From assembly GCA_965204565.1 (NCBI GenBank), contig CBDBEU010000005.1:1412366-1476365 (forward strand): a stretch of DNA of 64,000 nt, read 5' to 3'. A program made the position numbers and the translations under genes. Shown here piece by piece: positions 13,738 through 51,185 of this stretch. Source of the DNA: Hyphomicrobiales bacterium (lineage in GTDB: Bacteria; Pseudomonadota; Alphaproteobacteria; Rhizobiales; TMED25). Under the pieces are notes generated by a model. It worked only from the letters and a program-made list of their open reading frames with translations, was not told the DNA's origin and did not search any database. Every line of letters begins with the position of its first letter. Positions within the stretch are counted from its first letter, which is position 1.

Positions 13738-14060
13738 TTTCCGGTGGCCAATCCGGATGATCTTCACAGGCTATAATTTCAGTGGCCGGCCGATAGCGGC
13801 ATTCGTCGAGGACGACCACTCAAGCCACTAACCGACCGGCCCACCCCACGGACCCAAGAGATGCGGCGGACCTGAGCACTCCGTAAGGCATTCTATAGCA
13901 GTCATCGCCGCTGTTATTCTTAACCGGCGACGCTAATTCTCGGTGAACTTAAGATGCCGCCGTTCCGCGTTTCTATCAACGCGCTTTATATTTCGAATTG
14001 GATATTATTGATTGTGGAGCGAAACGCAATGAATATATCTGAACTTACCGATACGTTCTA

Positions 14061-36205: not shown

Positions 36206-36310
36206 TTTCTGGAGTCTCACACCGATTCCGCCGCCCCTGCGACATCTCTTTGTAAATTGGCGCATAAATTGGCGCACATCTTTTTTTAAAGCCCCGGAGT
36301 GCCTATATTA

Positions 36311-36675
36311 GGCCCGCCGGCTTGCCGGCTATGGTGATAAATGGGCGTCGTAATAAACCTGTCGGACCCGGGGGCAGTACCCGGCGCCTCCACCAAATGC
36401 CGTCAGGAGGCTGAATGACGGTATCTCTGTGGGGGCGAAACAGGATCGACGAGGGCGTAAAGGACGTACTTTTGCTCGGCATGGTACCGCCGTTATCGGG
36501 CCATTGTTATAGTTGCAAACGACAACTATGCTCCGGTGGCTCAGGCTGCGTAACGCAGTTTGATCATCGAAATTCAAGTCCTGGGCCGTAGCAGGCTCTA
36601 GGCGGGGTTTGGGGGGCACCTGGCAACAGAAGCCCTCCGCTTTTGCCTCCACTCCCATGCGCGGCGGCGCTTTTT
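36311..36675 (+). ncRNA. ssrA: tmRNA (ssrA), circularly permuted two-piece alphaproteobacterial type
   Basis: The acceptor 3-prime strand CGCCTCC-A-CCA (36385-36395) lies UPSTREAM of the acceptor 5-prime strand GGGGGCG (36431-37). The 7-bp pairing includes G3:U. T-arm CCGGG-GGCAGTA-CCCGG. Tag ORF GCA AAC GAC AAC TAT GCT CCG GTG GCT CAG GCT GCG TAA (36515-36553) = ANDNYAPVAQAA*. The outer boundaries are approximate. Confidence 0.85.
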
Positions 36676-36726: not shown

Positions 36727-38277
36727 GCCTATTCCGTTGAAAAAATTGCCTTAATATCGGCATTTTGGGCTGCTTCAGTTTCCCCATTGCTTTGGGAGAT
36801 TTATTGCGATGATGGGACCAAGGCAGGAAGCGCGGGCCGCATTGTTTTATGAGTTCTGTCTTGAAGATCATGTTCCAGCGATCATTTGTTGCGGTCGATA
36901 GATCGGTTTGCTGATCTGTCTGATATCCGTCCACACCCTGCATCGTTCTACAGTTCAACCGGTCGACCTTCTATTGATCCGGAACTTCTGATCCGAATGT
37001 TGCTGGTTGGTTATTGCATGGGCATTCGTTCTGAACGGCGACGATGCGAAGAGGTTCATCTCAACCTGGCCTGCCGTTGGTTCTGCCGTCTTGATCCGGC
37101 TGATCCCGTTCCCGACCATTCGACCTTCTCCAGGAACCGCCACGGTCGGTTCCGCGATAGTGGCCTTCTGCGTCATGTGTTTGAGACGGTAGGTGCCCGT
37201 TGTATTGCTGAGGGCTTTGTCAGTCAGCGGCCAGCGTCCTGCTGTTGATGCCAGTCTGATCGAAGCGGATACCAATCGGCAAAACTCCACATCGAAAGAA
37301 GAATGGCAGCCGGACAAGATTAATCACGAAGACGCACCCCGTGCGGTGCGCGAGTATTTGGACACGTTGGATGATGCAGCTTTTGGTGCAGCCACTCCGG
37401 TGCAGCCAGGGGTCACTTCCCGTTCCGACCCCGCATCGCAATGGACTGCAGCACGCAAAGACCCGGCGTATTTTGCATATTCTGCCAACGACATGATTGA
37501 TACGGGCAATGCTGCGATCCTGGATGTGGAAGCCACGCGATCAGTTCGACAAGCCGAACCTGGTGCCATGCAAACCATGATCGACAGAACTAAACACACC
37601 TTCGGCAGTCAACCCGAACGTATGATTGCAGATACCGCTTATGGAACCGGACCATTGCTGGAATGGCCGGTTCAGGAACGGGGTATGGCTCCGCATGGTC
37701 CGGTAGTCGATAAATCTGGCCGAACCGACGGAACTTTCGAACGTGTCGACTTTACCCATGATGATGAGCACGATCTTTATATCTGTCCTGGTGGGAAAGA
37801 ACTCAAACAAAGCCGTCGTGCCTTCACCAATCCCAGAACACCCGGGCCAGACAAGTATGGTGTGTTGCGTTACCGCGCCAAAAAGGCTGATTGCGAAGGC
37901 TGCCAACTCAAATCCCGGTGTTGCCCCAAAGAGCCTCAGCGCAAGGTAACTCGTTCCATCCATGAACCTTCACGCGATGCCGCCCGCAAGATCCACCAGA
38001 CCATCGACTATGCGATCTCATGCAAGTTGCGCAAAAAGATCGAGATGCTGCTTGCCCATCTCAAACGCATTCCGGGGCTGGGAAGGTTGCGATTACGAGG
38101 GCCCTGTGGGGCCAAAGACGAATTCCACCTTGCAGCAACCGCTCAAAACCTCAGAAAACTCGCAAAACTGATCAAAGCACCAGGCCCAATCAGTAAAACA
38201 GCAAAGAACGGCGCGTAGAAACAGTGTGATCATCAACCGGAAAGCGTCAGACAAGCGACTTTTTCAACGGAATAGGC
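36727..38277 (+). mobile_element. IS1182-family-like insertion sequence (1551 bp), transposase with at least 2 frameshifts
   Basis: Perfect 18-bp terminal IRs GCCTATTCCGTTGAAAAA (36727-44; reverse complement at 38260-77). MMGPRQEARAALFYEF.. / DRFADLSDIRPH..GRPSIDPELLIRMLLVGYCMGIRSERR..FSRNRHGRF / AVDASLIEAD..MIADTAYGTG..YICPGGKEL..CEGCQLKSRCC..LRLRGP..EFHLAATAQNLRKLAKL in three frames. Confidence 0.85.
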
Positions 38278-40405: not shown

Positions 40406-40502
40406 GCCTGAACCCCACACACCGAACGCATCGCTGATGCATAAAGAAATTATTAAACATCAGGTTACGCGAAATTGTTCCTCCAAATGGAGGAGCAGAT
40501 CA

Positions 40503-40880
40503 ATGAGTTCAAATGGCTATGTGTCACCAGAAAAATCAAACCCGGATCACGCGCAATTCGCATTGAAGATTAAGCGTGAGGGGAAAGGGGAAGGGACGGA
40601 TCTCCGGGTAAAGCTCGACGGGAATTTCGTCCGCCGCCGCCCGGGCAAAACCATGCGCGAGTTCGACGATGCATGCCTTGCGCCCGCGCCCGTTTTGGCA
40701 CCCGAGGGAATCAAGGCGATCCGCGAGTCTGAGCATGTCTCGCAGCCTGTTTTTGCGCGTTATCTCAATGTGTCGAAGAACCTCGTTTCCGACTGGGAGC
40801 GCGGCGCGAAGAAACCGGGCGGGCCTGCATTGCGGCTGCTTTCAATCATTCAACGTAATGGGCTCGACGCGGTGGCATAG
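40503..40880 (+). CDS. XRE-family HTH protein of the COG2944 / HigA-MqsA antitoxin-like type, no toxin partner
   Basis: C-terminal IKAIRESEHVSQPVFARYLNVSKNLVSDWERGAKKPGGPALRLLSIIQRNG. GGAGGA RBS before the ATG at 40503. AT-rich 5-prime end. Confidence 0.7.
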   Translation: MSSNGYVSPEKSNPDHAQFALKIKREGKGEGTDLRVKLDGNFVRRRPGKTMREFDDACLAPAPVLAPEGIKAIRESEHVSQPVFARYLNVSKNLVSDWERGAKKPGGPALRLLSIIQRNGLDAVA

Positions 40881-40886
40881 AAAATA

Positions 40887-40922
40887 TGCATCAAACAGAT
40901 TGATGCAGATTTTTAGTTGACA
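40887..40922 (+). promoter_or_regulatory. Perfect 8-bp inverted repeat (TGCATCAA-N5-TTGATGCA) followed by TTGACA, between the HTH gene and the RM operon
   Basis: IR at 40887-40907, T-run at 40909-13, TTGACA at 40917-22, which is 30 nt upstream of the half-hsdS ATG. It could be an operator plus -35 box, or a weak terminator. Confidence 0.35.
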
Positions 40923-40952
40923 TTGCCGCCGTAATGGGATCGTTTTCGCTGC

Positions 40953-41576
40953 ATGAAGCGTGAAGATGCACTCGATTCGACAATCCTGGTTGAGATGGCC
41001 TCCATCTCGGCTGGCTATCCGTTTCGGGGTAAGATTGATCAACTTCCCAAGGGCGATGTTGCTGTCATTCAGATGCGCAACGCTGATCCGGAAACCGGAA
41101 TCGATTGGCAGGGTCTAACCCGCGCTGAATTGCCGCAAAGTTCCGAAAAGGCGTTCCTGCATTCGGGCGACATTATTCTGTCTACGCGAGGCGGCAGGAA
41201 TTTTGCCTATTGCATTGAGAAGGGAAAGGGGCCGGTGGTTTGCTCACCGCACTTTTTCCTGATCCGGCTCATGCGAGATTCGATCCTGCCTGAATTTCTC
41301 GCATGGCAGATCAATCAAACGCACGCCCAAAACTATTTCACTGCGGGTGCCACAGGCTCTTACATTCTTAACCTGAAGCGCGCAGTCGTCGAACGACTTC
41401 CGATAGTGCTGCCATCCTTTGAACGGCAAAACTCCATAGTCCAAGCCGACAAAGCAGCGCGGGCCGAGCGCCTTGTTCTCAATCGGCTTATCCAGAACAG
41501 AACGAAAGAGATGAATGCCTTGGCCAAAGAGTTTTTGGGCAACGTCTCGGCATATCCAGAGCGAGAATCGACATGA
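40953..41576 (+). CDS. hsdS: Type I RM specificity subunit, half-size (single target-recognition domain plus one coiled-coil region)
   Basis: 207 aa; TRD followed by LPIVLPSFERQNSIVQADKAARAERLVLNRLIQNRTKEMNALAKEFL. The stop overlaps the hsdM ATG (ATGA). Confidence 0.8.
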   Translation: MKREDALDSTILVEMASISAGYPFRGKIDQLPKGDVAVIQMRNADPETGIDWQGLTRAELPQSSEKAFLHSGDIILSTRGGRNFAYCIEKGKGPVVCSPHFFLIRLMRDSILPEFLAWQINQTHAQNYFTAGATGSYILNLKRAVVERLPIVLPSFERQNSIVQADKAARAERLVLNRLIQNRTKEMNALAKEFLGNVSAYPEREST

Positions 41577-43081
41577 GCGACAGGATCGGACAGGACGAAG
41601 TGAACAAGGCCGTCTGGGCCGCCTGCGATACCTTTCGCGGAACGGTCTCGGCAGACGTCTACAAGGACTACGTCCTTAGCATGCTGTTTCTGAAATATAT
41701 CTCGGATGTGTGGCGGGACCATCATGACGAATACAAGAATCAATATGGCGACGAGCCCGAGCTGATCGCGGAACTGATGACGAACGAGCGCTTCGTCCTT
41801 CCCGAAAGCGCGAATTTCACCGCGCTCTTCAACGCTCGTTACGAGCCGGGGAATGGCGAACGGATCGACAAGGCGCTGCACGCCATCGAAGAAGCCAATA
41901 TCGTCAGGTTGCGCGATGTTTTCCAGGATATCAGCTTCAATTCGAACAAGCTGGGCGAGGAGAAGCAGAAGAACGACATCCTGCGCCATCTGCTGGAGGA
42001 TTTCGAGCGGCCCGAACTGAACATGCGTCCCTCGCGCATCGGCAATCTCGACGTGATCGGCAACGCCTATGAATTCCTCATCAAGAATTTCGCCGCCGAC
42101 GCCGGTCGCAAGGCCGGCGAGTTCTACACGCCTCCCGAAGTCTCGGAACTGATGGCCGAGATCATGGACATGGCCGAGGGCGAGGAAGCCTGCGATCCCG
42201 CCTGCGGTTCCGGCTCGCTGTTGATGAAGTGCGCTCGCCGCGTTCAGGCCAGGTTTGGCGGGTCTAAAAAATACGCACTGTTTGGGCAGGAATCGATCGG
42301 CAGCACCCAGGCGCTCGCCAGGATGAACATGTTCCTCCACGGCGAGGACAATCACCGCATCGAATGGGGCGACACAATTCGCAACCCCAAGCTGCTCGAT
42401 GGCGAGGACCGTCTGAAGCACTTCGATGTGGTCGTCGCCAATCCCCCTTTCAGCCTCGACAAATGGGGCCACGACACGGCAGAGAACGACAGGTTCGGAC
42501 GCTTCCGGCGCGGCGTGCCGCCCAGGACCAAGGGCGACTACGCCTTCATCCTCCATATGATCGAGACAATGAAGCCGAAGACCGGGCGGATGGCGGTGGT
42601 CGCGCCGCATGGCGTGCTGTTTCGCGGATCGAGCGAGGGCGGGATCAGGCGGAAACTGATCGAGGAGAACCTGCTCGAAGCGGTGATCGGCCTGCCGGAG
42701 AAGCTGTTCTACGGCACCGGCATTCCGGCCTGCATCCTGATCTTCCGCAAGACAAGGGCGGACGACAAGGTGCTGTTCGTCGATGCGAGCCGCGAGTTCA
42801 AATCGGGCAAGAACCAGAACCGGCTCGAAGAAGGGCATCTAGCGAAGATCGTCGAGACGTATCGCGAGCGGAAAACCGTCGACAGATACGCCTGTCTCGC
42901 CACGCCCGGGGAACTGGCCGAAAACGACTACAACCTCAACATTCCGCGCTATGTCGACACGTTCGAGGAAGAAGAGGAGATCGACCTCCTTGCCGTCCGC
43001 GCCGAACGGCTGAAACTGAAGGCGGAACTGGCCGAGTTGGAGAAGAAGATGGACGGCTATCTTCAGGAGCTTGGCTACTGA
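41573..43081 (+). CDS. hsdM: Type I RM N6-adenine DNA methyltransferase subunit
   Basis: 502 aa; FYTPPEVSELM, DPACGSGSLL (SAM motif I), VVANPPFS (motif IV). Confidence 0.95.
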   Translation: MSDRIGQDEVNKAVWAACDTFRGTVSADVYKDYVLSMLFLKYISDVWRDHHDEYKNQYGDEPELIAELMTNERFVLPESANFTALFNARYEPGNGERIDKALHAIEEANIVRLRDVFQDISFNSNKLGEEKQKNDILRHLLEDFERPELNMRPSRIGNLDVIGNAYEFLIKNFAADAGRKAGEFYTPPEVSELMAEIMDMAEGEEACDPACGSGSLLMKCARRVQARFGGSKKYALFGQESIGSTQALARMNMFLHGEDNHRIEWGDTIRNPKLLDGEDRLKHFDVVVANPPFSLDKWGHDTAENDRFGRFRRGVPPRTKGDYAFILHMIETMKPKTGRMAVVAPHGVLFRGSSEGGIRRKLIEENLLEAVIGLPEKLFYGTGIPACILIFRKTRADDKVLFVDASREFKSGKNQNRLEEGHLAKIVETYRERKTVDRYACLATPGELAENDYNLNIPRYVDTFEEEEEIDLLAVRAERLKLKAELAELEKKMDGYLQELGY

Positions 43082-44109
43082 TGGCGGGCGAACTCGTCCT
43101 TTACACCACCGAGGACGGCGATCTCGTTGTCCGCTTGCAGGAGCGGGACGGGAGCGTCCGGCTGACCCAATTGCAGCTTGCCGAACTCTTTCAAACCACG
43201 GTTTCCAATATCAACAAGCATATCAGGGGGGTATTGGACGATTGCGAGCAGGATGAGGCAACTATTGAGGAATACTCAATAGTTCAAACAGAGGGCAAGC
43301 GCAGCGTCGAGCGTCTGGTTGCGCATTACAGCCTCCCGATGATCCTTTCGGTCGGCTTTCGCGTGCGCTCCCCGCGCGGTGCACAGTTCCGCCGCTGGGC
43401 GGCAGAGACCCTGTCCGAATATATGGTCAAGGGCTTCGTCATGGATGACGACCGGCTGAAGGAGCCGGACAACGACTATTTCGAAGAACTGCTCGCCCGC
43501 ATCCGCGACATTCGCGCATCGGAAAAGCTGTTCTACAAGAAGGTGCTCGATATCTACGCGACTGCGGTGGATTATGATCCGAAGGCGGAGGCGAGCCAGC
43601 GGTTCTTCCAGACGGTGCAGAACAGGATGCACCACGCCGCCCATGGCCGGACGGCGGCGGAAACGAAGATTGCGCGGGCCGACAGTTCCAGGCCGATGAT
43701 GGGGCTGACCGGCTGGACCGGCGAGAAAAAGGGGCGTCTGCCCACGAAGCAGGATGCGCAGGTGGCGAAGAACCATCTGCAGGATGGCGAGATGGAGACG
43801 CTGAACCGCATCACCGTCGCCTTCCTCGAATTTGCCGAGGCCATGGCGACAGACCGAAAGCCGATGCACATGGCCGACTGGATCGCCAGGCTCGACGATT
43901 TCCTCAAACTGGGCGATCACAGGCCGCCGAGCGGTGCAGGCAAGGTTTCGGCCAGGGCGGCGACGAAAAAAGTGAGCGCCGAATATGACCGCTGGCATAA
44001 ACGAGCGATCAACGCGCCGAGCGCGATCGAGCGGCATTTTATCGAGGCCACCGCCAAGGTGAAGAAGCTCGCTGCGGAGAAGCCCGCCGGCAAGGGCGGT
44101 GCGGCATGA
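43081..44109 (+). CDS. rhuM: RhuM-family protein embedded between hsdM and hsdS
   Basis: MAGELVLYTTEDGDLVVRLQERDGSVRLTQLQLAELFQTTVSNINKHI...YSLPMILSVGFRVRSPRGAQFRRWAAETL...FYKKVLDIYATAVDYD. The ATG shares 1 nt with the hsdM TGA. The track ORF 42364..44109 is over-extended. Confidence 0.85.
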   Translation: MAGELVLYTTEDGDLVVRLQERDGSVRLTQLQLAELFQTTVSNINKHIRGVLDDCEQDEATIEEYSIVQTEGKRSVERLVAHYSLPMILSVGFRVRSPRGAQFRRWAAETLSEYMVKGFVMDDDRLKEPDNDYFEELLARIRDIRASEKLFYKKVLDIYATAVDYDPKAEASQRFFQTVQNRMHHAAHGRTAAETKIARADSSRPMMGLTGWTGEKKGRLPTKQDAQVAKNHLQDGEMETLNRITVAFLEFAEAMATDRKPMHMADWIARLDDFLKLGDHRPPSGAGKVSARAATKKVSAEYDRWHKRAINAPSAIERHFIEATAKVKKLAAEKPAGKGGAA

Positions 44110-45311
44110 TTCCGGAGGGGTGGAAGCAGACCGAACTCGGTGCCTTGGCTGACTTCGCTTCGGGTGGGACGCCTTCGAAGCAGAATGAGGCTTTCTGGGG
44201 TGGCTTCTTTCCTTGGGTTTCGGCCAAAGACCTGAAGAAGCATGTCATAAACAACGCTGAACTCTGCCTCACAGAAGAAGGCCGCAAAGTTGCCAAAACT
44301 GCTCCGATTGGCTCAGTTCTGGTTCTCGTTCGCGGTATGACACTCCTCAAGGATGTGCCCATCGGCTATGTGGCGGAACCAGTTGCATTCAATCAAGATA
44401 TCAAAGCCTTGGTCGCGAAGAGCTACGTCGCCCCAAAATTCTTGGCTTATTTACTTGTTTCATTGAGACGCCCGCTCATGACATTAGTCAACACTGCCAA
44501 TCATGGGACAGGTAGGCTCGATACCGATCTGCTCAAATCGTTTCCAGTCGTCCTGCCGTCATTTGTAGAGCAGTGCCGAATCGCAAAGACACTGGAAACG
44601 TGGGACCGCGCCATCGAGACGGTCGAGGCGCTGATCGCCAATGCCCGCGCGCAAAAACAGGCGCTGATGCAGCAACTCCTCCCGCAAGGCGCCACCCCGC
44701 CCAAAAAGCGTCTCCCCGGCTTTTCGGGGGAGTGGCGCGAAATGAAGCTAGGGGGAATGGCAAAAGTTGTGATGGGATCGTCACCGCCCTCATCTGCCTA
44801 CAACGAGACCGAAATAGGGCTGCCGTTGATCCAAGGCAATGCCGACATTAAGAACCGTCAGTCCGCACCACGTGTTCATACCAGCGAGATTACCCAAGTT
44901 TGCGAACCCAAGGATATTTTGTTCAGCGTGCGAGCACCCGTCGGCGAAATATCCATTGCGATCCACCATGCGTGTATCGGACGAGGCATTGCAGCAATCC
45001 GTCCGCATAGCGGAAGCGACGCTGACTTCTTGTATTTTTGCTTGCTTGCCGCAGAATCTCGATGGGCCCGCTTATCTCAAGGAAGCACCTTTCAGGCAGT
45101 GAACAGCAAGGATCTTAGGGGGTCCATAGTTTTCGCGCCCTCGAAAGAGACTGAACGTGAAGCAATCGGAGCGGCGGTTCGTGAGTCGCAATCGGCCAAA
45201 GACAACCTGCAATCCCAACTCGCCGCCCTCCGCCGGGAAAAGGCCGCGCTGATGCAGCAACTGCTCACCGGCAAGCGGCGGGTGAAACTCCCGGAAAGCG
45301 AGGTAGCGTAA
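44106..45311 (+). CDS. hsdS: Type I RM specificity subunit, full length (two TRDs)
   Basis: 401 aa; two variable TRDs separated by LPSFVEQCRIAKTLETWDRAIETVEALIANARAQKQALMQQLL. It ends with LAALRREKAALMQQLLTGKRRV. Confidence 0.9.
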   Translation: MIPEGWKQTELGALADFASGGTPSKQNEAFWGGFFPWVSAKDLKKHVINNAELCLTEEGRKVAKTAPIGSVLVLVRGMTLLKDVPIGYVAEPVAFNQDIKALVAKSYVAPKFLAYLLVSLRRPLMTLVNTANHGTGRLDTDLLKSFPVVLPSFVEQCRIAKTLETWDRAIETVEALIANARAQKQALMQQLLPQGATPPKKRLPGFSGEWREMKLGGMAKVVMGSSPPSSAYNETEIGLPLIQGNADIKNRQSAPRVHTSEITQVCEPKDILFSVRAPVGEISIAIHHACIGRGIAAIRPHSGSDADFLYFCLLAAESRWARLSQGSTFQAVNSKDLRGSIVFAPSKETEREAIGAAVRESQSAKDNLQSQLAALRREKAALMQQLLTGKRRVKLPESEVA

Positions 45312-46972
45312 TGGCTAAGACCAGATCATTTTCCATATTTCTTCTGAAAGACGATGCAACCCCTGATAATGCCTTGAAGGATGTGAAGGATGGCAATGCG
45401 CTGAAAGCGAATGCGGCGGCCAACAATCTGCCAGAAGGCGCGCGTTTATTTCTTTTGGACAAACCGCCTAATCCGCCTTGGTGGAAAGCCTACTTTGACG
45501 TCAAACAAGACCTGTTTCAGGGCTCAAAGGGCGCGCTTGTTTTCGTTCCAGCATCGGGCCGGTGGTTCGCGCTGTCGTTTGGCCATGTCTATCATAATTT
45601 GAAGGACACGAGTTACGAATATGATTTTGGTCTTCGCGTCACACTGAACTGCGTTAACCCGGAGGAGTTGAAAAGCACGGACGTACTGGAACCCAGCGGC
45701 GCAAAACGGCAAAGAACGCAGCTGCCGACAGTCGGCGATCTCACCTTTTTTGATGTCGATGCCGACAGCACAATTTTGAAAAGCCTCACTGGCAAGGTGA
45801 AAGCGGAGCATAAGGAAGTATTCAAGAGCGCAACCGGCTCCAGCAATATCCGCATTTCCTCCGAAGCAGCGCCGAATGAACTGATCGGACTTTGTGAGAA
45901 TCTATATGCTCTGTATCAGGAAGAGACCTACAAGACGGCGTTTCCGGACATACAGAACATCGCGCCGGTACGCGATCCCGTAACCATTGAGAATCTGAAT
46001 GGGCGATTGCTTGAAGCCTTCCGTGAAAAGGATGATGGCTTATCGTTATCGGTCCCTGAGATTGTCGATCATGGCGATGGTATCTGGGGAACATTTACTG
46101 GGGCACGCGCTGGCAAGGTGTATGATGATATTTTCATCGATCAGTATTACGAATATCTTGAAGATAAAAACGTCGGATTGAACACTATCGGCATTGACGT
46201 ACTAAAGCGCCATCAGCTTGCATTGACGAACGAAGATGGTAGCCACATCAGAAACAGCTACAGCATTCTGAAATGTCTGATATTCGATACGACGTTGGAA
46301 AACGGGACACAAAGCTATCATCTTCGTGAAGGGCATTGGTATCTAATCGACGCCGATTATATTGCTCGCCTGAAGACGTATCTTGACCCTCTATGCGAAG
46401 ACACGACGTTGCCGGATTTCGATCACGCAAATGAAGGCGAGTATAATATCGCCGCAGCGGCAGCAGAAAATGGCCGGGTGTGCATGGACAAGAAAAGTAT
46501 CACACCAAAAGGTCAAAAACCGGTCGAGCCTTGCGATATTTATGAAGTGGCCGATGACAAGGCGGTCCTCCATCACGTGAAAATATCGACGCTATCTGCA
46601 CAGCTTAGCCACTTATTCAACCAAGGCATTAACTCGGTCAATTTGATCCGGTCAGAAAGTGAGTCCTTGGAAAAAATGAAGGCGCTGGCTGGAGATGGTT
46701 TGGCTGATGCGGAGAAGGCAGAGTCAATCGCTCCTCTTGAGAATGACAAGTTTCGGATCGTTTATGATATCGTCACGCATAAGGATAAAGCTGACAAATC
46801 GCTAAATCTGCCGCTCTTCTCTCGCATCAGCTTAATGCGCTGCATGAAAGAATTCAGGCGCATGGGCATTGAAGCGGAATATTGCTTTATTCCTAACAAA
46901 TTTCCGAAAAATGCGGGAAAAAAGCGCAAGAAGAAACCCAAAGCTAGTCCCGCCGACGGGGCACAAAATTGA
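45311..46972 (+). CDS. Uncharacterised 553-aa protein between hsdS and hsdR (tentatively TIGR04141 / DUF6119-like; possible degenerate PD-(D/E)xK nuclease core)
   Basis: Overlaps both neighbours (TAATG at 45309-13; TTGA at 46969-72). SFSIFLLK, FALSFGHVYHNL, YDFGLRVTLNCV, EPCDIYEV-x10-LHHVKISTLSAQLSHLFNQG (aa 406-438), Lys-rich tail KKRKKKPK. Hand-counted GC is 42-47% on two 60-nt lines. Confidence 0.6.
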   Translation: MAKTRSFSIFLLKDDATPDNALKDVKDGNALKANAAANNLPEGARLFLLDKPPNPPWWKAYFDVKQDLFQGSKGALVFVPASGRWFALSFGHVYHNLKDTSYEYDFGLRVTLNCVNPEELKSTDVLEPSGAKRQRTQLPTVGDLTFFDVDADSTILKSLTGKVKAEHKEVFKSATGSSNIRISSEAAPNELIGLCENLYALYQEETYKTAFPDIQNIAPVRDPVTIENLNGRLLEAFREKDDGLSLSVPEIVDHGDGIWGTFTGARAGKVYDDIFIDQYYEYLEDKNVGLNTIGIDVLKRHQLALTNEDGSHIRNSYSILKCLIFDTTLENGTQSYHLREGHWYLIDADYIARLKTYLDPLCEDTTLPDFDHANEGEYNIAAAAAENGRVCMDKKSITPKGQKPVEPCDIYEVADDKAVLHHVKISTLSAQLSHLFNQGINSVNLIRSESESLEKMKALAGDGLADAEKAESIAPLENDKFRIVYDIVTHKDKADKSLNLPLFSRISLMRCMKEFRRMGIEAEYCFIPNKFPKNAGKKRKKKPKASPADGAQN

Positions 46973-49900
46973 CCATCACCCCCAACACCGCCGAGCTCTA
47001 CAGCTCCCACATCCCCGCACTTGCCACGCTGGTCTCGCTGGGCTGGGACTATCTCCCGCCCGAGGACTGCCTCGCGGCGCGCGGCGGCAATCAGGGGGTG
47101 GTGCTGCGCGATGTGCTGGTCGAGCAACTGCGGCGGCGAACTTTCGAGTACAAGGGGCGGAGCTGTCCGCTCTCGACCAATGCGATCGACCAGATCGTTC
47201 GCGAGCTGACCTCGCCCGCTCTCAACGAAGGGCTGATCGCCGCCAACGAGAAGCTCTACAACGCCATCACGCTGGGCATCACCGTCACCGAATTCGTCGA
47301 CGGCAGGAAGCACAGCGTCACCGTGCCGATTATCGACTGGGCGCATCCGCCGGCGAACAGCTTTATCGTCAGCGAGGAGATGGAAGTGCTGGCCGTGCCG
47401 GGCACGCATACGCGGCGGCCCGATATTGTCGGCTTCGTCAACGGCATTCCGCTGCTGGTGATCGAGGCCAAGCGGCCCGACAGCGGCAACCCAGACAAGT
47501 CGACGGTGGATGAAGGCATCAGCCAGACGATCCGCAATCAGGGGCAGGAGGAAATCCCGCATTTGTTCGCCCATGCGCATCTGCTGTTGTCCATCGGCAT
47601 GACCGACGGCCGTTACGGCACCACCAGGACCCCGCGCAAATTCTGGTCGCAATGGCGTGAGGAGGAATTTTCGGAAGACCATTTCCGCCGGATCAAGAAC
47701 GCGGCGCGAGCGACCGATCCGCGCGCTGCCATCCTGAAGAACCACATCAGCGAGGTGCGCGATCACGTCCAGCACCTGTGGAGCGACGAGCAGGCGGTGA
47801 CCGCGCAGGATCGCCTGCTGATCGGCCTCTGCTCGCCGAAGCGATTGCTGGAATTCGTTCGGTCTTATGTCCTGTTCGACCGCAAGGTGGACAAGATCGT
47901 CGCCCGCCATCAGCAGTTCTTCGGTATCCGTGCGCTGCTGGATCAGATCAGCCGGATCAGGCCGGACGGAGCGCGAGAGGGCGGGGTCATCTGGCACACC
48001 ACCGGTTCTGGCAAGAGCTTCACAATGGTGATGCTGTGCAAGGCACTATTAATTCATGAGAAGTTGAAAGCGTGCCGTCTGGTGGCGGTCACGGACAGGC
48101 GCAATCTGGAAAAGCAGCTGGCCGGGAATTTCCAGACCGGCGGCGCATTAGGCTCTGATGTCGGCTCAAGAAACGCCTCGAAGGCCAAAGCGCAATCTGG
48201 ACGCGACCTGGCCAAACTTATCGGCAAGGGCGTCGAGCGCATCATCTTCACCATCATCAACAAGTTTGGCAGTGCCGCTCGCTATCCGGAGTGCAGGAAT
48301 GACACTGCAGACATGATTGTCTTGGTCGACGAGGGGCACAGGAGCCAGGGCGGCGAGAATCACGAGCGGATGCGCAAAGCGCTGCCCAATGCCGCCTATG
48401 TCGCCTTCACCGGCACGCCTTTGCTGAAGGACGACAAGACCGCAAACAGGTTTGGTCGCATCGTTCACGCATATACAATGAAGGACGCGGTTTCCGACGG
48501 AACCGTAACGCCGATTCTATATGAAGAGCGAAAGCCGATTCTCGCCGTCAATGAGCAAGCAACCGACAACTGGTTTGAGAAGGTCACTGGCGGTCTGTCC
48601 GACGAGCAGAAAAGCGATCTCAAAAAGAAGTTCGGCACCAAGGGAGCGGTTTATGGTTCAGACGACCGGATCGCCCTTATCGCGCTCGATATTGCCACCC
48701 ACTTCAAGGAGAATTTCAAGGACCTCGACCCTGGTCTGAAGGGGCAGCTTGCGACCGACTCAAAGCGGTCTGCCATCCGTTATAAAAAGGCGCTCGATGC
48801 GACCGGGCTGGTAAGCAGCGCCATCGTGATTTCGCCGCCCGATACGCGCGAAGGCCATTCGGAGGTCGATGCGGCAGAACTTCCGGAAGTTCAGCAGTGG
48901 TGGAAGGAGAACGTCAAGGGAGATGCCGAAGACTACGAGCGCCGGGTTATTGAAGACTTCTCCACTGAAGGCCGTCCCGATATCTTAATCGTCGTCGATA
49001 AACTGCTCACCGGCTTTGATGAGCCACGCAACGCTGTCCTTTACATCGACAAGAAGCTTGAGCAGCATAATTTGATCCAGGCAATCGCCCGCGTGAACCG
49101 GTTGCATGAGCAGAAAAAATACGGCCTTCTCATTGACTATCGTGGCATCCTGAAGGCTTTGGACACCGCGCTTACCGAATATCAAGACCTCGCGGATCGG
49201 ACTCAAGGAGGTTTTGATCTCAAGGATATAGACGAGCTCTACGCCGATGTCAGCACCGAGTATAAGCGCCTGCCAAAACTTCATGCCGAACTCCGGGCGA
49301 TCTTCAATCCTGTCAAAAACAGGGTCGACATTGAGCAGTACAGACAGTTAATGGTGCCAAATATCCGCGAAACGGATGACGGAACTCCAGTCGATCAAAA
49401 TCAGAAGATTAGAGAAGACTTCTACGAAGCTCTTACTGCCTACGGCATGTGTCTCAAGATCGCCCTCGGATCGCGCTCATTCTTTGAGGACTTGTCGACA
49501 AGCGAGGCCCGGATCGCGGAATACAAGCGCGACCTGAAGTTCTTCACCAGCCTGCGAAAAATCGTAAGGCAGGACGCTCAGGAAACGGTCGACTATAGCG
49601 CATATGAGGATCAGATCAGTCGCCTGGTCGATCGCTATGTCGCAGGTGAAGACGTTGAGAACGTCGATGGCGTATTGATCGTCAACGACCTCGGGAAGCA
49701 GGAGCCTGCGGAGTCCTGGTCAGCGGAAAAGACGCGCAATGAAACAGATATCATCCGCTCCCGTATGCGCAAGACGATAGAACAGGAACTTGCTGATGAT
49801 CCCTATGCGCAGCGATTCTTCTCTGATCTTCTGAAGCGCGCAATCGCGGAAGCGTCAGCGCTATTCGACCACCCCTATAAGCAGTATGTCTTGTTCAGGG

Positions 49901-50253
49901 ATCTGGAACAAAAGCTCGCGTCAAAGCGCATCGACGACATACCGGACGAGTTGGAAGGGCGCTCCCATGCAAGTGCATATTTCGGTATCATTCGCCTCGA
50001 AATAGCGGACGATATTGCGATTAAAGAACAGCGCAAAGCGCTCGTTGAGGCCTCTCTCGATATGGAAAAGGCCGTCGAACAGGCGATTGCTGAGAATTCG
50101 CTCAATACTGCCAACATCGAGGCGGCAATTCGCAAGGCTTTACTGCCCCGCCTATTCAGCCTGGTCGGCTTGGACAAAGCGAAAATCATCACCGAGCGGA
50201 TCGTTGAAATAACACGCACAGGACTCGCGCGCGGCAGTTCCAAACGACCATGA
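46969..50253 (+). CDS. hsdR: Type I RM restriction/translocase subunit
   Basis: 1094 aa; WHTTGSGKSFTMV (motif I), LVDEGHRSQ (DEAH-like motif II), FTGTP, helicase C-terminal domain. Apparent TTG start. Confidence 0.93.
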   Translation: MTITPNTAELYSSHIPALATLVSLGWDYLPPEDCLAARGGNQGVVLRDVLVEQLRRRTFEYKGRSCPLSTNAIDQIVRELTSPALNEGLIAANEKLYNAITLGITVTEFVDGRKHSVTVPIIDWAHPPANSFIVSEEMEVLAVPGTHTRRPDIVGFVNGIPLLVIEAKRPDSGNPDKSTVDEGISQTIRNQGQEEIPHLFAHAHLLLSIGMTDGRYGTTRTPRKFWSQWREEEFSEDHFRRIKNAARATDPRAAILKNHISEVRDHVQHLWSDEQAVTAQDRLLIGLCSPKRLLEFVRSYVLFDRKVDKIVARHQQFFGIRALLDQISRIRPDGAREGGVIWHTTGSGKSFTMVMLCKALLIHEKLKACRLVAVTDRRNLEKQLAGNFQTGGALGSDVGSRNASKAKAQSGRDLAKLIGKGVERIIFTIINKFGSAARYPECRNDTADMIVLVDEGHRSQGGENHERMRKALPNAAYVAFTGTPLLKDDKTANRFGRIVHAYTMKDAVSDGTVTPILYEERKPILAVNEQATDNWFEKVTGGLSDEQKSDLKKKFGTKGAVYGSDDRIALIALDIATHFKENFKDLDPGLKGQLATDSKRSAIRYKKALDATGLVSSAIVISPPDTREGHSEVDAAELPEVQQWWKENVKGDAEDYERRVIEDFSTEGRPDILIVVDKLLTGFDEPRNAVLYIDKKLEQHNLIQAIARVNRLHEQKKYGLLIDYRGILKALDTALTEYQDLADRTQGGFDLKDIDELYADVSTEYKRLPKLHAELRAIFNPVKNRVDIEQYRQLMVPNIRETDDGTPVDQNQKIREDFYEALTAYGMCLKIALGSRSFFEDLSTSEARIAEYKRDLKFFTSLRKIVRQDAQETVDYSAYEDQISRLVDRYVAGEDVENVDGVLIVNDLGKQEPAESWSAEKTRNETDIIRSRMRKTIEQELADDPYAQRFFSDLLKRAIAEASALFDHPYKQYVLFRDLEQKLASKRIDDIPDELEGRSHASAYFGIIRLEIADDIAIKEQRKALVEASLDMEKAVEQAIAENSLNTANIEAAIRKALLPRLFSLVGLDKAKIITERIVEITRTGLARGSSKRP

Positions 50254-50975
50254 TTGTGCACTACGGAAATGACGAAGTGACCTGTCGGATCAGCCGAAAT
50301 TCAGCACTTGCCGGTCGCGTTCGCATCCACGTTCTCCCGGATGGTGAAGTTGAGATCGAAGCGCCGGAAACTGAGTCAATCTCTAGCATTGCGTTTGCGG
50401 CGCAAAAGAAGGCGGGATGGATTTTTCGGCACCGTGTGAAGGCGCTTGCTGCTCAAAAACATGCCAAGCCGAGAGAGTTCGTAAGCGGTGAAACCCATTT
50501 CTATCTTGGACGCCGCTACAAGCTTGTCGTGCACGAGAAAGCGGGAACGCCTTCCAGTGTAAAGCTCTTGCGGGGAAGGATTGAAGTTACACTTCCAGTC
50601 GCTGATCCAGCGGCTGTTAGACGACGTTTGGGTGCCTGGTATTCCGAGCGTGCTTCCGCGTATCTAGGGGCGAAATTGCAAGAGATCGCAGCAAGAATTT
50701 CGTGGATTAAGGGGGAGCCCCGATTCAAGTTGATACGAATGCAAACGCAATGGGGGAGCTGCTCGCCAGAGGGAGTCATTTATCTCAACCCTGCACTTGT
50801 GAGGGTGCCCAGGCACTGCATCGAATACGTGATTGTTCATGAACTTTGTCACCTATGCGAGCACAATCACAGCAAGCGCTTCTACGAGCTTCTCGATCGA
50901 AGCGTTCCTAGATGGAGATCAACAAAATGCGAGTTGGATGAGCTTGCCGAGCTTGTTTTGGCAGGCAATTTTTGA
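50250..50975 (+). CDS. DUF45 / YgjP-like M48-family zinc metallopeptidase coupled to hsdR
   Basis: 241 aa; QWGSCSPEGVIYLNPAL...YVIVHELCHLCEHNHSKRFY (HExxH). The ATG overlaps the hsdR stop (ATGA). Confidence 0.85.
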   Translation: MIVHYGNDEVTCRISRNSALAGRVRIHVLPDGEVEIEAPETESISSIAFAAQKKAGWIFRHRVKALAAQKHAKPREFVSGETHFYLGRRYKLVVHEKAGTPSSVKLLRGRIEVTLPVADPAAVRRRLGAWYSERASAYLGAKLQEIAARISWIKGEPRFKLIRMQTQWGSCSPEGVIYLNPALVRVPRHCIEYVIVHELCHLCEHNHSKRFYELLDRSVPRWRSTKCELDELAELVLAGNF

Positions 50976-51185
50976 CAGCTCATTCGAGGTGGAAAATGGA
51001 AGGATCGGACACCGCAGTCTGCCTTAACGAAATGGCCATTTGTTACCGGACCGGTCCCCATTGAGAACAAACTTCCGTTCTCGCCTCTTCACCTCAAGCC
51101 CGGTTCGGGCTAGGAAACCCGCGTGAAACCAAGGCCTTTGCCGTCATTGAACGGCCGGGGCAGTGGTGGATCAGACCATGCATAT

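Follow-up and report, generated by a model that had tools for sequence, protein, structure and literature searches.

Is a Type I restriction-modification (RM) operon that carries a second, half-sized specificity gene and several genes of other kinds an RM system with passengers, or is it a composite unit of defence, and what controls it? This question is raised by a block of seven genes at 40953–50975, all on the + strand, in a 64 kb stretch of contig CBDBEU010000005.1 from a Hyphomicrobiales bacterium (hereafter the window). The block encodes a half-HsdS, HsdM, a RhuM-family protein, a full HsdS, a DUF6119/TIGR04141 protein, HsdR and the metallopeptidase YgjP (Table 1), an order which had been given by an earlier reading of the DNA letters (the original prediction), and which was confirmed by open reading frame (ORF) calls and domain matches. 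We conclude, with a probability of about 0.7, that approximately 40406–51100 is a horizontally acquired composite defence cassette, in which control is probably autoregulated and defence probably layered. A single autoregulated transcript would carry all seven genes, with their translation coupled, the variable full HsdS would direct classical Type I restriction, and an R2M2S complex would cut DNA lacking the N6-methyladenine (m6A) mark specified by HsdS. RhuM and the DUF6119 protein would provide second-line protection when restriction fails or is inhibited, as PrrC does in EcoprrI, or DarTG2 in the RRDM island of Escherichia coli.

Insertion and spread of the cassette

The block was inserted into a neighbourhood that is otherwise conserved as thyA-ssrA-sspB-fumC/RHH-asmA. 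The original prediction had placed an inserted block between fumC and a ribbon-helix-helix (RHH)/AsmA gene pair and had proposed a comparison with syntenic fumC–asmA regions, which we carried out with relatives having an 89% identical FumC. In three long Parvibaculum-like contigs (L085–L087) the gene order is thyA, ssrA, sspB, fumC, RHH_4 and asmA, the latter on the opposite strand, with RHH_4 located 14 nt after fumC and nothing between the two. Since fumC and RHH_4 are adjacent in these relatives, the window holds approximately 10.7 kb of extra DNA between them. The prediction was to fall if closely related genomes carried the same seven genes, and on this point it stands, because the relatives lack the block entirely. 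The closest FumC proteins carrying organism names were also those of Parvibaculum and relatives. No direct repeats, att sites or target duplications were found flanking the block, and neither an integrase nor a tRNA gene was found there, as had been predicted; this holds for the block itself, as a transfer-messenger RNA (tmRNA) gene and an IS5-like transposase 3–4 kb upstream had been overlooked. The genes sspB and fumC intervene between this transposase and the block.

Sequence comparison with other genomes indicates that the cassette was acquired horizontally as one mobile block. In the closest locus, L001, with a 95% identical DUF6119 protein, the same seven-gene order stands between entirely different flanks, and the DNA is 85–87% identical to that of the window over 40650–51072, except for the 3′ end of rhuM and both target recognition domains (TRDs) of hsdS, with the hsdS conserved region reaching 93% identity. 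The module swapping within the operon that had been predicted was thus borne out, since both hsdS TRDs have been exchanged in comparison with L001 and the 3′ end of rhuM differs as well. The non-coding tail after ygjP is ~85% identical to the DNA that follows ygjP in L001, where the genomic surroundings differ, and homology ends beyond it, which indicates that this tail travels with the cassette. In L002 (DUF6119 85% identical) the cassette adjoins an integrase and TraG/TraD/MobA genes.

A one-genome-per-species scan for DUF6119 gave 80 loci, which together with L001–L004 made a set of 84. The cassette order half-hsdS, hsdM, (rhuM), hsdS, DUF6119, hsdR, ygjP was present in 38 of these, in Alpha- and Gammaproteobacteria, Acidobacteria, Bdellovibrionales, Pirellulaceae, Nitrospirae and other hosts. 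The half-hsdS and ygjP genes were nearly always present in cassettes of this lineage, and rhuM in only part of them. Backbone and cargo are decoupled: L068 and L071 have an HsdR 87–88% and an HsdM 87–89% identical to those of the window with a DUF6119 protein of only 44% identity, and the opposite is seen in L005, with 64% identity for HsdR and 71% for DUF6119. A related hsdM backbone was detected in 561 of 5426 complete E. coli genomes, and the two E. coli loci inspected (L177 and L178) contain hsdM, hsdS, a YecA-family gene, hsdR and an M48 peptidase gene. In both loci, DUF262 and PD-(D/E)XK nuclease genes follow the cassette (16517–19514 in L177, 17167–19510 in L178), within an integrase island beside a tRNA-Gly/Cys/Leu cluster, the whole being a more extensive defence island built on this backbone.

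All six junctions of the window are start/stop overlaps of 1 or 4 nt (ATGA, TGATG, ATGA, TAATG, TTGA and ATGA, each exactly where it had been reported). Such all-overlap junctions are common to the closest cassettes L001 and L003 and are not lineage-wide, distant members having gaps of 20–30 nt. The mosaic base composition reported for the operon was correct in its trend, but the hand-counted figures were 5–10 points too extreme. The GC content of hsdM was 59% with a peak 400-nt window of 63% (estimated previously at ~68%), that of the DUF6119 gene was 48% with windows of 45–52% (42–47%), and that of hsdR was 63–65% at the 5′ end (~75%) and 50–53% in the 3′ part (~47–48%), with 58% for the window overall. 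The GC content at third codon positions (GC3) was a sharper separator, with hsdM (80), rhuM (77) and hsdR (71) standing against a low group of DUF6119 (53), ygjP (52) and half-hsdS (57), and host genes at 60–71. The low GC content of the DUF6119 gene is limited to the sub-lineage of the window, L001 and L002, and equals that of neighbouring genes elsewhere. A fall in GC content from 5′ to 3′ occurs in most homologous hsdR genes (66 to 57 in L001, 60 to 51 in L010), and the chimeric hsdR proposed previously was rejected, as the nearest homologues are the same along the whole protein: in 100-residue windows L001, L068, L071 and L010 remain closest throughout with no recombination breakpoint, and identity drops alike for all homologues over the last ~350 residues.

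At the left edge of the island lies a helix-turn-helix (HTH) gene, encoding a protein 82% identical to the HTH protein of L001 (5163–5687 of that locus). In L001 it is preceded by a RelE-family toxin gene, no such toxin gene is present in the window, and the first ~70 codons of the window ORF are unrelated sequence, so that this gene would be an orphan antitoxin or a rebuilt gene. No locus other than the window, L001 and L120 has this gene. At the other end, the terminator-like hairpin overlapping the ygjP stop codon (10 pairs, 5 of them G-C) is the top-scoring + strand site of this kind in 38.5–52.5 kb. Further upstream, the transposase directly follows ssrA, the tmRNA gene, and the Parvibaculum-like relatives have no insertion sequence between ssrA and sspB. 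At 13779–13891 on the − strand there was an Rfam match to the EcpR1/Atu_C6 small RNA, a rhizobial cell-cycle family (87 bits, gathering score 60).

Table 1. Positions, strands and supporting matches of the cassette features and of upstream elements in the window
Feature	Position	Strand	Evidence or remark
tmRNA gene, alphaproteobacterial two-piece (permuted)	36277-36644	+	tag ANDNYAPVAQAA
IS5/IS1182-type (IS5-like) transposase	36886-38218	+	split in two overlapping ORFs: DUF772, then DDE
Inserted island	40406-51100 (right edge approximate)		between fumC stop (40405) and RHH_4 gene
XRE/MqsA-type HTH gene	40504-40880 (ORF open from 40437)	+	PF01381 and TIGR03830 matches; island left edge
Candidate operator O1, perfect 21-bp palindrome	40887-40907	.	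TGCATCA-AACAGAT-TGATGCA; only perfect match in 64 kb
-35 hexamer TTGACA	40918-40923	+	position fixed 6-10 nt after O1 in 18/32 first-set loci
Candidate operator O2, degenerate copy	40950-40970	.	TGCATGA-AGCGTGA-AGATGCA; covers half-hsdS ATG (40953)
Half-HsdS, 207 aa, one TRD and one coiled-coil helix	40953-41576	+	PADLOC Specificity_I 1e-19
HsdM, m6A methyltransferase subunit, 502 aa	41573-43081	+	PF02384 351 bits, PF12161 86 bits
RhuM-family protein (PDC-S05), facultative cargo	43081-44109	+	PF13310 329.8 bits, cutoff 33.7
Full HsdS, two variable TRDs	44106-45311	+	PF01420 in two stretches; PADLOC Specificity_I 8e-69, full length
DUF6119/TIGR04141 protein, 553 aa	45311-46972	+	PF19614 465 bits (profile 1-524 of 524), TIGR04141 450 bits, cutoff 35
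HsdR, nuclease and SF2 translocase, 1094 aa, TTG start	46969-50253	+	PF04313, PF18766, PF22679, PF04851
YgjP/DUF45 (M48-like) zinc metallopeptidase	50250-50975	+	PF01863 186.8 bits, cutoff 26; HELCH
Terminator-like hairpin and T-run	50942-50975	+	overlaps ygjP stop; consensus match only
Non-coding 3' tail, 97 nt	50976-51072	+	after ygjP

Conserved core and exchangeable cargo

The core of the cassette has the features of a Type I system. HsdM scored 283.8 bits with TIGR00497 (cutoff 242.75) and has an HsdM_N domain followed by a gamma-class N6-adenine methyltransferase domain, while HsdR scored 432.6 bits with TIGR00348 (cutoff 284.55) and 1546 bits with the PADLOC REase_I model, and combines an N-terminal nuclease domain with a superfamily 2 (SF2) motor. 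The full HsdS has two TRDs separated by conserved helical regions, which are present as repeats (D4) at 44645–44681 and 45230–45266. Assignment to the methylation-associated defence system (MADS) was rejected, with 61.8 bits for NF047738 (cutoff 720), and mad2/mad5 PADLOC matches falling far below the Type I models.

The first gene of the operon encodes the half-HsdS, which also shows weak PDB matches to the S subunits 5YBB and 3OKG, and which precedes hsdM in nearly all cassettes of the lineage. Its TRD has a median pairwise identity of 46% (minimum 36%) over 25 loci, compared with 20–21% for the TRDs of the full HsdS and 80% for HsdM in the same loci; across the lineage HsdM is 75–93% identical. 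These alignments indicate that the half-HsdS is a conserved lineage-core gene rather than a diversifying second specificity subunit, which makes the "two S subunits" of the original prediction a misleading description. On another reading, both specificity subunits would be functional and the locus would be a plain Type I RM system. M2S would then recognise a single asymmetric motif and M2(half-S)2 a single palindromic one, with RhuM and DUF6119 as hitchhiking selfish genes without functional ties to the RM system, and the promoter palindromes described below would be bound by a factor encoded outside the cassette. Engineered half-S homodimers are indeed functional (PMC3874165), but a specificity conserved across phyla, as indicated by the TRD identities, gives little discrimination and is unlike the evolution of Type I S subunits, and on this and the points given below we regard such a system as unlikely. 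The presence of two hsdS-type genes at one locus, together with the D4 repeats, could alternatively indicate a phase-variable shufflon, with recombination switching the specificity. To this we give almost no credence, as the block contains no recombinase and no inverted repeats joining half-hsdS and hsdS, both genes are co-directional and intact, and half-hsdS is conserved rather than variable.

Two intervals of the cassette hold cargo, namely slot 1 between hsdM and hsdS (RhuM in the window) and slot 2 between hsdS and hsdR (DUF6119 in the window). In other cassettes the slot ORFs encode a dGTPase (HD and HD_assoc domains), DUF4917/PDC-S21, a YhcG PD-(D/E)xK nuclease, Fic/DOC, Abi_2, a SMODS and SAVED pair of the cyclic oligonucleotide-based antiphage signalling system (CBASS), a KAP NTPase, a protein kinase and a Schlafen-type protein, and this variety of defence genes marks the slots as exchangeable defence-gene positions. 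The window RhuM is an ordinary family member, matching the PADLOC model PDC-S05 over its full length (5.4e-120). The RhuM/PDC-S05 family is anti-phage in E. coli, where plating of T7 and T5 was lowered ~1000-fold (PMC12881386), and the frequent embedding of RhuM genes in R-M loci was noted in 2013 (PMC3710099). Slot cargo drawn overwhelmingly from defence families, and a RhuM family with experimentally demonstrated activity, argue against selfish hitchhikers and agree with the composite defence island that had been predicted.

The DUF6119/TIGR04141 protein had been listed as an unknown 553-aa ORF, and can now be named by its full-length family match. The family comprises 3540 clusters at 50% identity, almost all of single-domain proteins of 520–560 aa; PADLOC gave no match (PADLOC v2 contains no model), and a literature search for DUF6119/TIGR04141 found nothing relevant. 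A widespread family located in a slot where other cassettes carry dGTPase, CBASS or Abi genes is a well-supported candidate defence gene. In the proposed mechanism it would act as an autonomous single-gene effector, with a C-terminal domain that is maybe PD-(D/E)xK-like (E406, D409, H421, K424). The residues invariant in the family alignment are E406-P-C-D409, H421, K424 and S433-HLFNQG, along with a lysine-rich tail. The C-terminal domain (355–535) was modelled with a predicted local distance difference test score (pLDDT) of 92.5, compared with 77 for the full-length protein, and its predicted alpha-beta-beta-alpha...beta order is compatible with the alpha-beta-beta-beta-alpha-beta core of PD-(D/E)xK nucleases. 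The top Foldseek lists for both models consisted mostly of PD-(D/E)xK nucleases (arenavirus endonuclease, Can2, R2 endonuclease, HincII and SfsA) at non-significant E-values of 0.02–0.1 and template modelling (TM) scores of ~0.3, those for the C-terminal domain being 0.28–0.31. This domain may be a PD-(D/E)xK-like nuclease, which is to be read as a lead, not a result.

Several observations weigh against an autonomous nuclease-type effector in the service of this cassette. The nuclease idea stems from the motif pattern and from non-significant structural matches, as the C-terminal model gave nothing significant against the PDB, the full-length model gave nothing at E < 1e-3 against the PDB and BFVD, and the best Foldseek result overall had E 0.02 and TM <0.35. 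At the sequence level, no match was returned when PDB sequences were searched with a profile or when Pfam was scanned with E-values of up to 10. Furthermore, DUF6119 stands alone, with no RM partner, in 46 of the 84 loci, as would suit a hitchhiking gene. No conserved neighbour was found among these 46 loci, where defence genes occur only sporadically and the flanks are heterogeneous, with scattered AbiE, methyltransferase, resolvase and integrase genes.

A non-autonomous DUF6119 protein could be a latent effector or sensor restrained by the Type I complex and freed by a phage anti-restriction protein, following the logic of PrrC and EcoprrI, or an accessory modulating restriction. It occupies the same hsdS/hsdR position as prrC and DarTG2 (PMC3710099; PMC12255303), 45% of the sampled family members are embedded in one RM lineage, and two divergent subfamilies (44% identity) are found in the slot of the near-identical backbones L068, L071 and L120. 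Over half of the family has neither an RM neighbour nor another conserved partner, and no HEPN, ABC-ATPase or other PrrC-like domain was detected, which makes a restrained DUF6119 improbable in our view; an autonomous effector carried as exchangeable cargo remains the reading we prefer.

Two further features of this family were observed. Residues 122–155 (45674–45775; STDxLEPSGAKRQRTQ...FDxDxDSTILKSLTGKV) are among the most conserved of the family, yet have a pLDDT <40, and may form an interaction or substrate-binding loop. In several cassettes an ORF of ~112 aa with no Pfam or PADLOC match lies directly upstream of DUF6119 (L002 6304–6642, L009 2078–2410, L060 7518–7862, L068 9663–10004, L071 9666–10001, L120 8781–9119); these are 61–71% mutually identical, and the ORF is absent from the window and from L001.

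The YgjP peptidase had been counted among the non-RM passengers, but ends nearly every cassette of the lineage and is thus a lineage-core last gene, its start overlapping the hsdR stop by 4 nt in the window. The HExxH zinc site of the family is present as HELCH, there was a weak PDB match to proabylysin, and in the E. coli relatives the gene following hsdR is annotated as an M48 family metallopeptidase. We propose that this peptidase would have its substrate within the system itself, namely HsdR or the regulator. A literature search for DUF45/COG1451/YgjP turned up nothing relevant.

A conserved promoter and its candidate reader

Upstream of half-hsdS, conserved sequence elements define a single σ70-type promoter, located between two 21-bp palindromes (O1 and O2). 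O1 starts 7 nt after the HTH gene and ends 10 nt before the −35 hexamer, and has an expected count of 0.05 in 64 kb; O1 and O2 are the only two strict sites in the window. The right arm of O2 coincides with the conserved N-terminal Asp-Ala codons (GAT GCA) of half-hsdS. Of the 18 loci of the first set (32 in all) that have the palindrome 6–10 nt before TTGAC, most show a TATAxT −10 element followed directly by the second site. A promoter scan of the operon found no other promoter-like sites on the + strand, apart from a weak 9/12 match inside the DUF6119 gene.

The arms of the palindromes are conserved in sequence and across phyla, the span is fixed at 21 bp and the central 7 nt are variable, which suggests a site for a dimeric protein rather than a hairpin. 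Variant half-sites match in both sites of one locus, as in L019 (CTGTA/TACAG) and L008 (GCAGTA/TACTGC). In the window O1 is followed by a T-run and was flagged as terminator-like on both strands, so the palindromes could be mere hairpins, either the terminator of the upstream HTH gene or a repetitive extragenic palindrome (REP)-like element. This is very improbable, as conservation extends beyond complementarity with a centre that is free to vary, the T-run is lacking in L001 and most loci, a second copy follows the −10 element, and the position relative to TTGAC is fixed.

We searched metagenomes for the pattern TGCATCA-N7-TGATGCA-N6-10-TTGAC alone and obtained 89 matching stretches, 80 of them retained as loci. 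Half-hsdS begins at a distance of 31–108 nt from the site, with hsdM (65–86% identity) as the next gene, in 42 of these 80 loci. Only one of these 42 palindrome-selected cassettes carries DUF6119, which also speaks against a DUF6119 protein tied to the Type I complex. A second site was present in 10 (strict) or 17 (relaxed) of 36 non-redundant promoters, against a background of 0.07 sites per kb. The other pattern matches lacking half-hsdS were mostly chance matches within coding regions (such as L115 and L141), with two genuine exceptions discussed below.

With respect to the protein reading these sites, no regulator gene is conserved upstream of O1 across the loci, and the broad host range (Alpha- and Gammaproteobacteria, Bdellovibrionales, Pirellulaceae and Acidobacteria) makes a shared host factor unlikely, which argues against the external factor required by an ordinary system with two specificities. 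The half-HsdS is the sole cassette-core protein with a sequence-specific DNA-reading domain, its TRD is conserved, and the palindromes were not found in the E. coli relatives lacking half-hsdS. The RRDM island of E. coli offers a precedent, in that a repressor is encoded by the gene in this place (PMC12255303). As a dimer, the half-HsdS would be expected to recognise a two-part palindrome whose halves are a set distance apart, and the inner part of O1 is ATCA-N7-TGAT. Palindromes are also read by engineered S homodimers with a single TRD, namely TCA N8 TGA by EcoDXXI deltaC and GAA N7 TTC by EcoR124I delta50 (PMC3874165). We therefore tentatively name the half-HsdS, together with HsdM, as the best candidate factor for reading or methylating O1 and O2.

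Other findings weigh against this assignment and the autoregulation that would follow from it. The invariant operator bases are the outer TGCA, which are 13 bp apart, a distance exceeding that of known Type I sites, and no characterised Type I site known to us spans as much as 21 bp. The −10 element is weak in the sub-lineage of the window. No binding of DNA by S subunits on their own is known (PMC3874165). Finally, genuine dual-site promoters precede a HNH-SAVED and CD-NTase CBASS pair in L090 (117–260) and a TnsA-like endonuclease gene in L089 (143–290), with no half-hsdS in the short sequence covered, so the palindromes may be read by a different, trans-acting factor, as an ordinary two-specificity system would have it. 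The same promoters make it seem that this control module is portable between defence or mobile cassettes.

It is possible, if doubtful, that a half-HsdS of fixed specificity and HsdM bind or methylate the palindromes bracketing their own promoter as a form of self-sensing, and that DUF6119 is at the same time a new single-gene, nuclease-type anti-phage effector. If so, transcription of the restriction system would be set by the system itself in response to its state of methylation or occupancy, and this would be a built-in controller of a Type I RM system, with a bearing on safe establishment in a new host. The literature searched contained no description of the palindrome motif or of a conserved half-HsdS leader gene.

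Comparison with known systems

A composite Type I island is a known kind of locus, as one with seven ORFs, embedded cargo and an M48 peptidase at its end was described in 2025 (PMC12255303). This RRDM island of enteropathogenic E. coli E2348/69 has the order RptR-HsdM-HsdS-DarT-DarG-HsdR-M48, in which the first gene encodes a repressor, and its authors call the hsdS/hsdR interval a recombination hotspot (PMC12255303). The window, compared here with the published description of RRDM, shares with it seven co-directional ORFs on a Type I backbone, cargo between hsdS and hsdR, an M48-type peptidase right after hsdR, an extra gene upstream of hsdM, palindromic sites at the −10 element or start of the promoter, and horizontal acquisition. 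It differs in its first gene, encoding a 207-aa single-TRD HsdS instead of the 79-aa RptR, in its two 21-bp TGCAnnA-N7-TnnTGCA palindromes instead of three TAGCTA repeats, and in having DUF6119, and RhuM in a second slot, instead of DarTG2. None of the sequences TAGCTA, TAGATA, TATCTA and TATATA occurs in 40880–40975, and PADLOC and Pfam detected neither DarT nor DarG among the seven proteins. An RptR-type system was rejected on these grounds, that is, the HsdS-type first gene, the lack of TAGCTA-type repeats and the lack of DarTG2.

PrrC is an anticodon nuclease held latent by the Type I enzyme. The window resembles EcoprrI-PrrC in having a non-RM effector gene in the hsdS/hsdR slot and in its proposed layered defence (partly PMC3710099), and differs in that about half of the DUF6119 family stands alone. 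Membership of the PrrC/RloC type was rejected, as neither DUF6119 nor RhuM contains an ABC-ATPase or HEPN domain. Like the engineered single-TRD HsdS proteins, the half-HsdS has one TRD and one helix and would be expected to read a symmetric bipartite site as a dimer; unlike them, it is natural, conserved in its lineage and additional to a full HsdS, and the conserved operator bases reach the outer TGCA. The arrangement of a strong distal site and a weaker site covering the start, with a putative system-encoded DNA reader, is reminiscent of Type II C proteins and self-repressing methyltransferases (partly PMC12255303), although no HTH C-protein is conserved in the cassette of the window. The RhuM protein matches the single-gene defence candidate PDC-S05 throughout, with no notable difference.

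That Type I operons with embedded cargo yield new immune genes is now accepted ("guilt by embedding"), and the island as such is therefore expected. New relative to the known islands are the half-HsdS as first gene, the dual 21-bp palindromes, the second cargo slot and the DUF6119 cargo. A common lineage with fixed slots, a related hsdM also occurring in many E. coli genomes, offers a practical map for mining cargo genes. To our knowledge, essentially nothing was known of the transcriptional control of Type I RM systems before RptR (2025), and a controller made from the system's own specificity module would, if confirmed, be a new principle beside that repressor.

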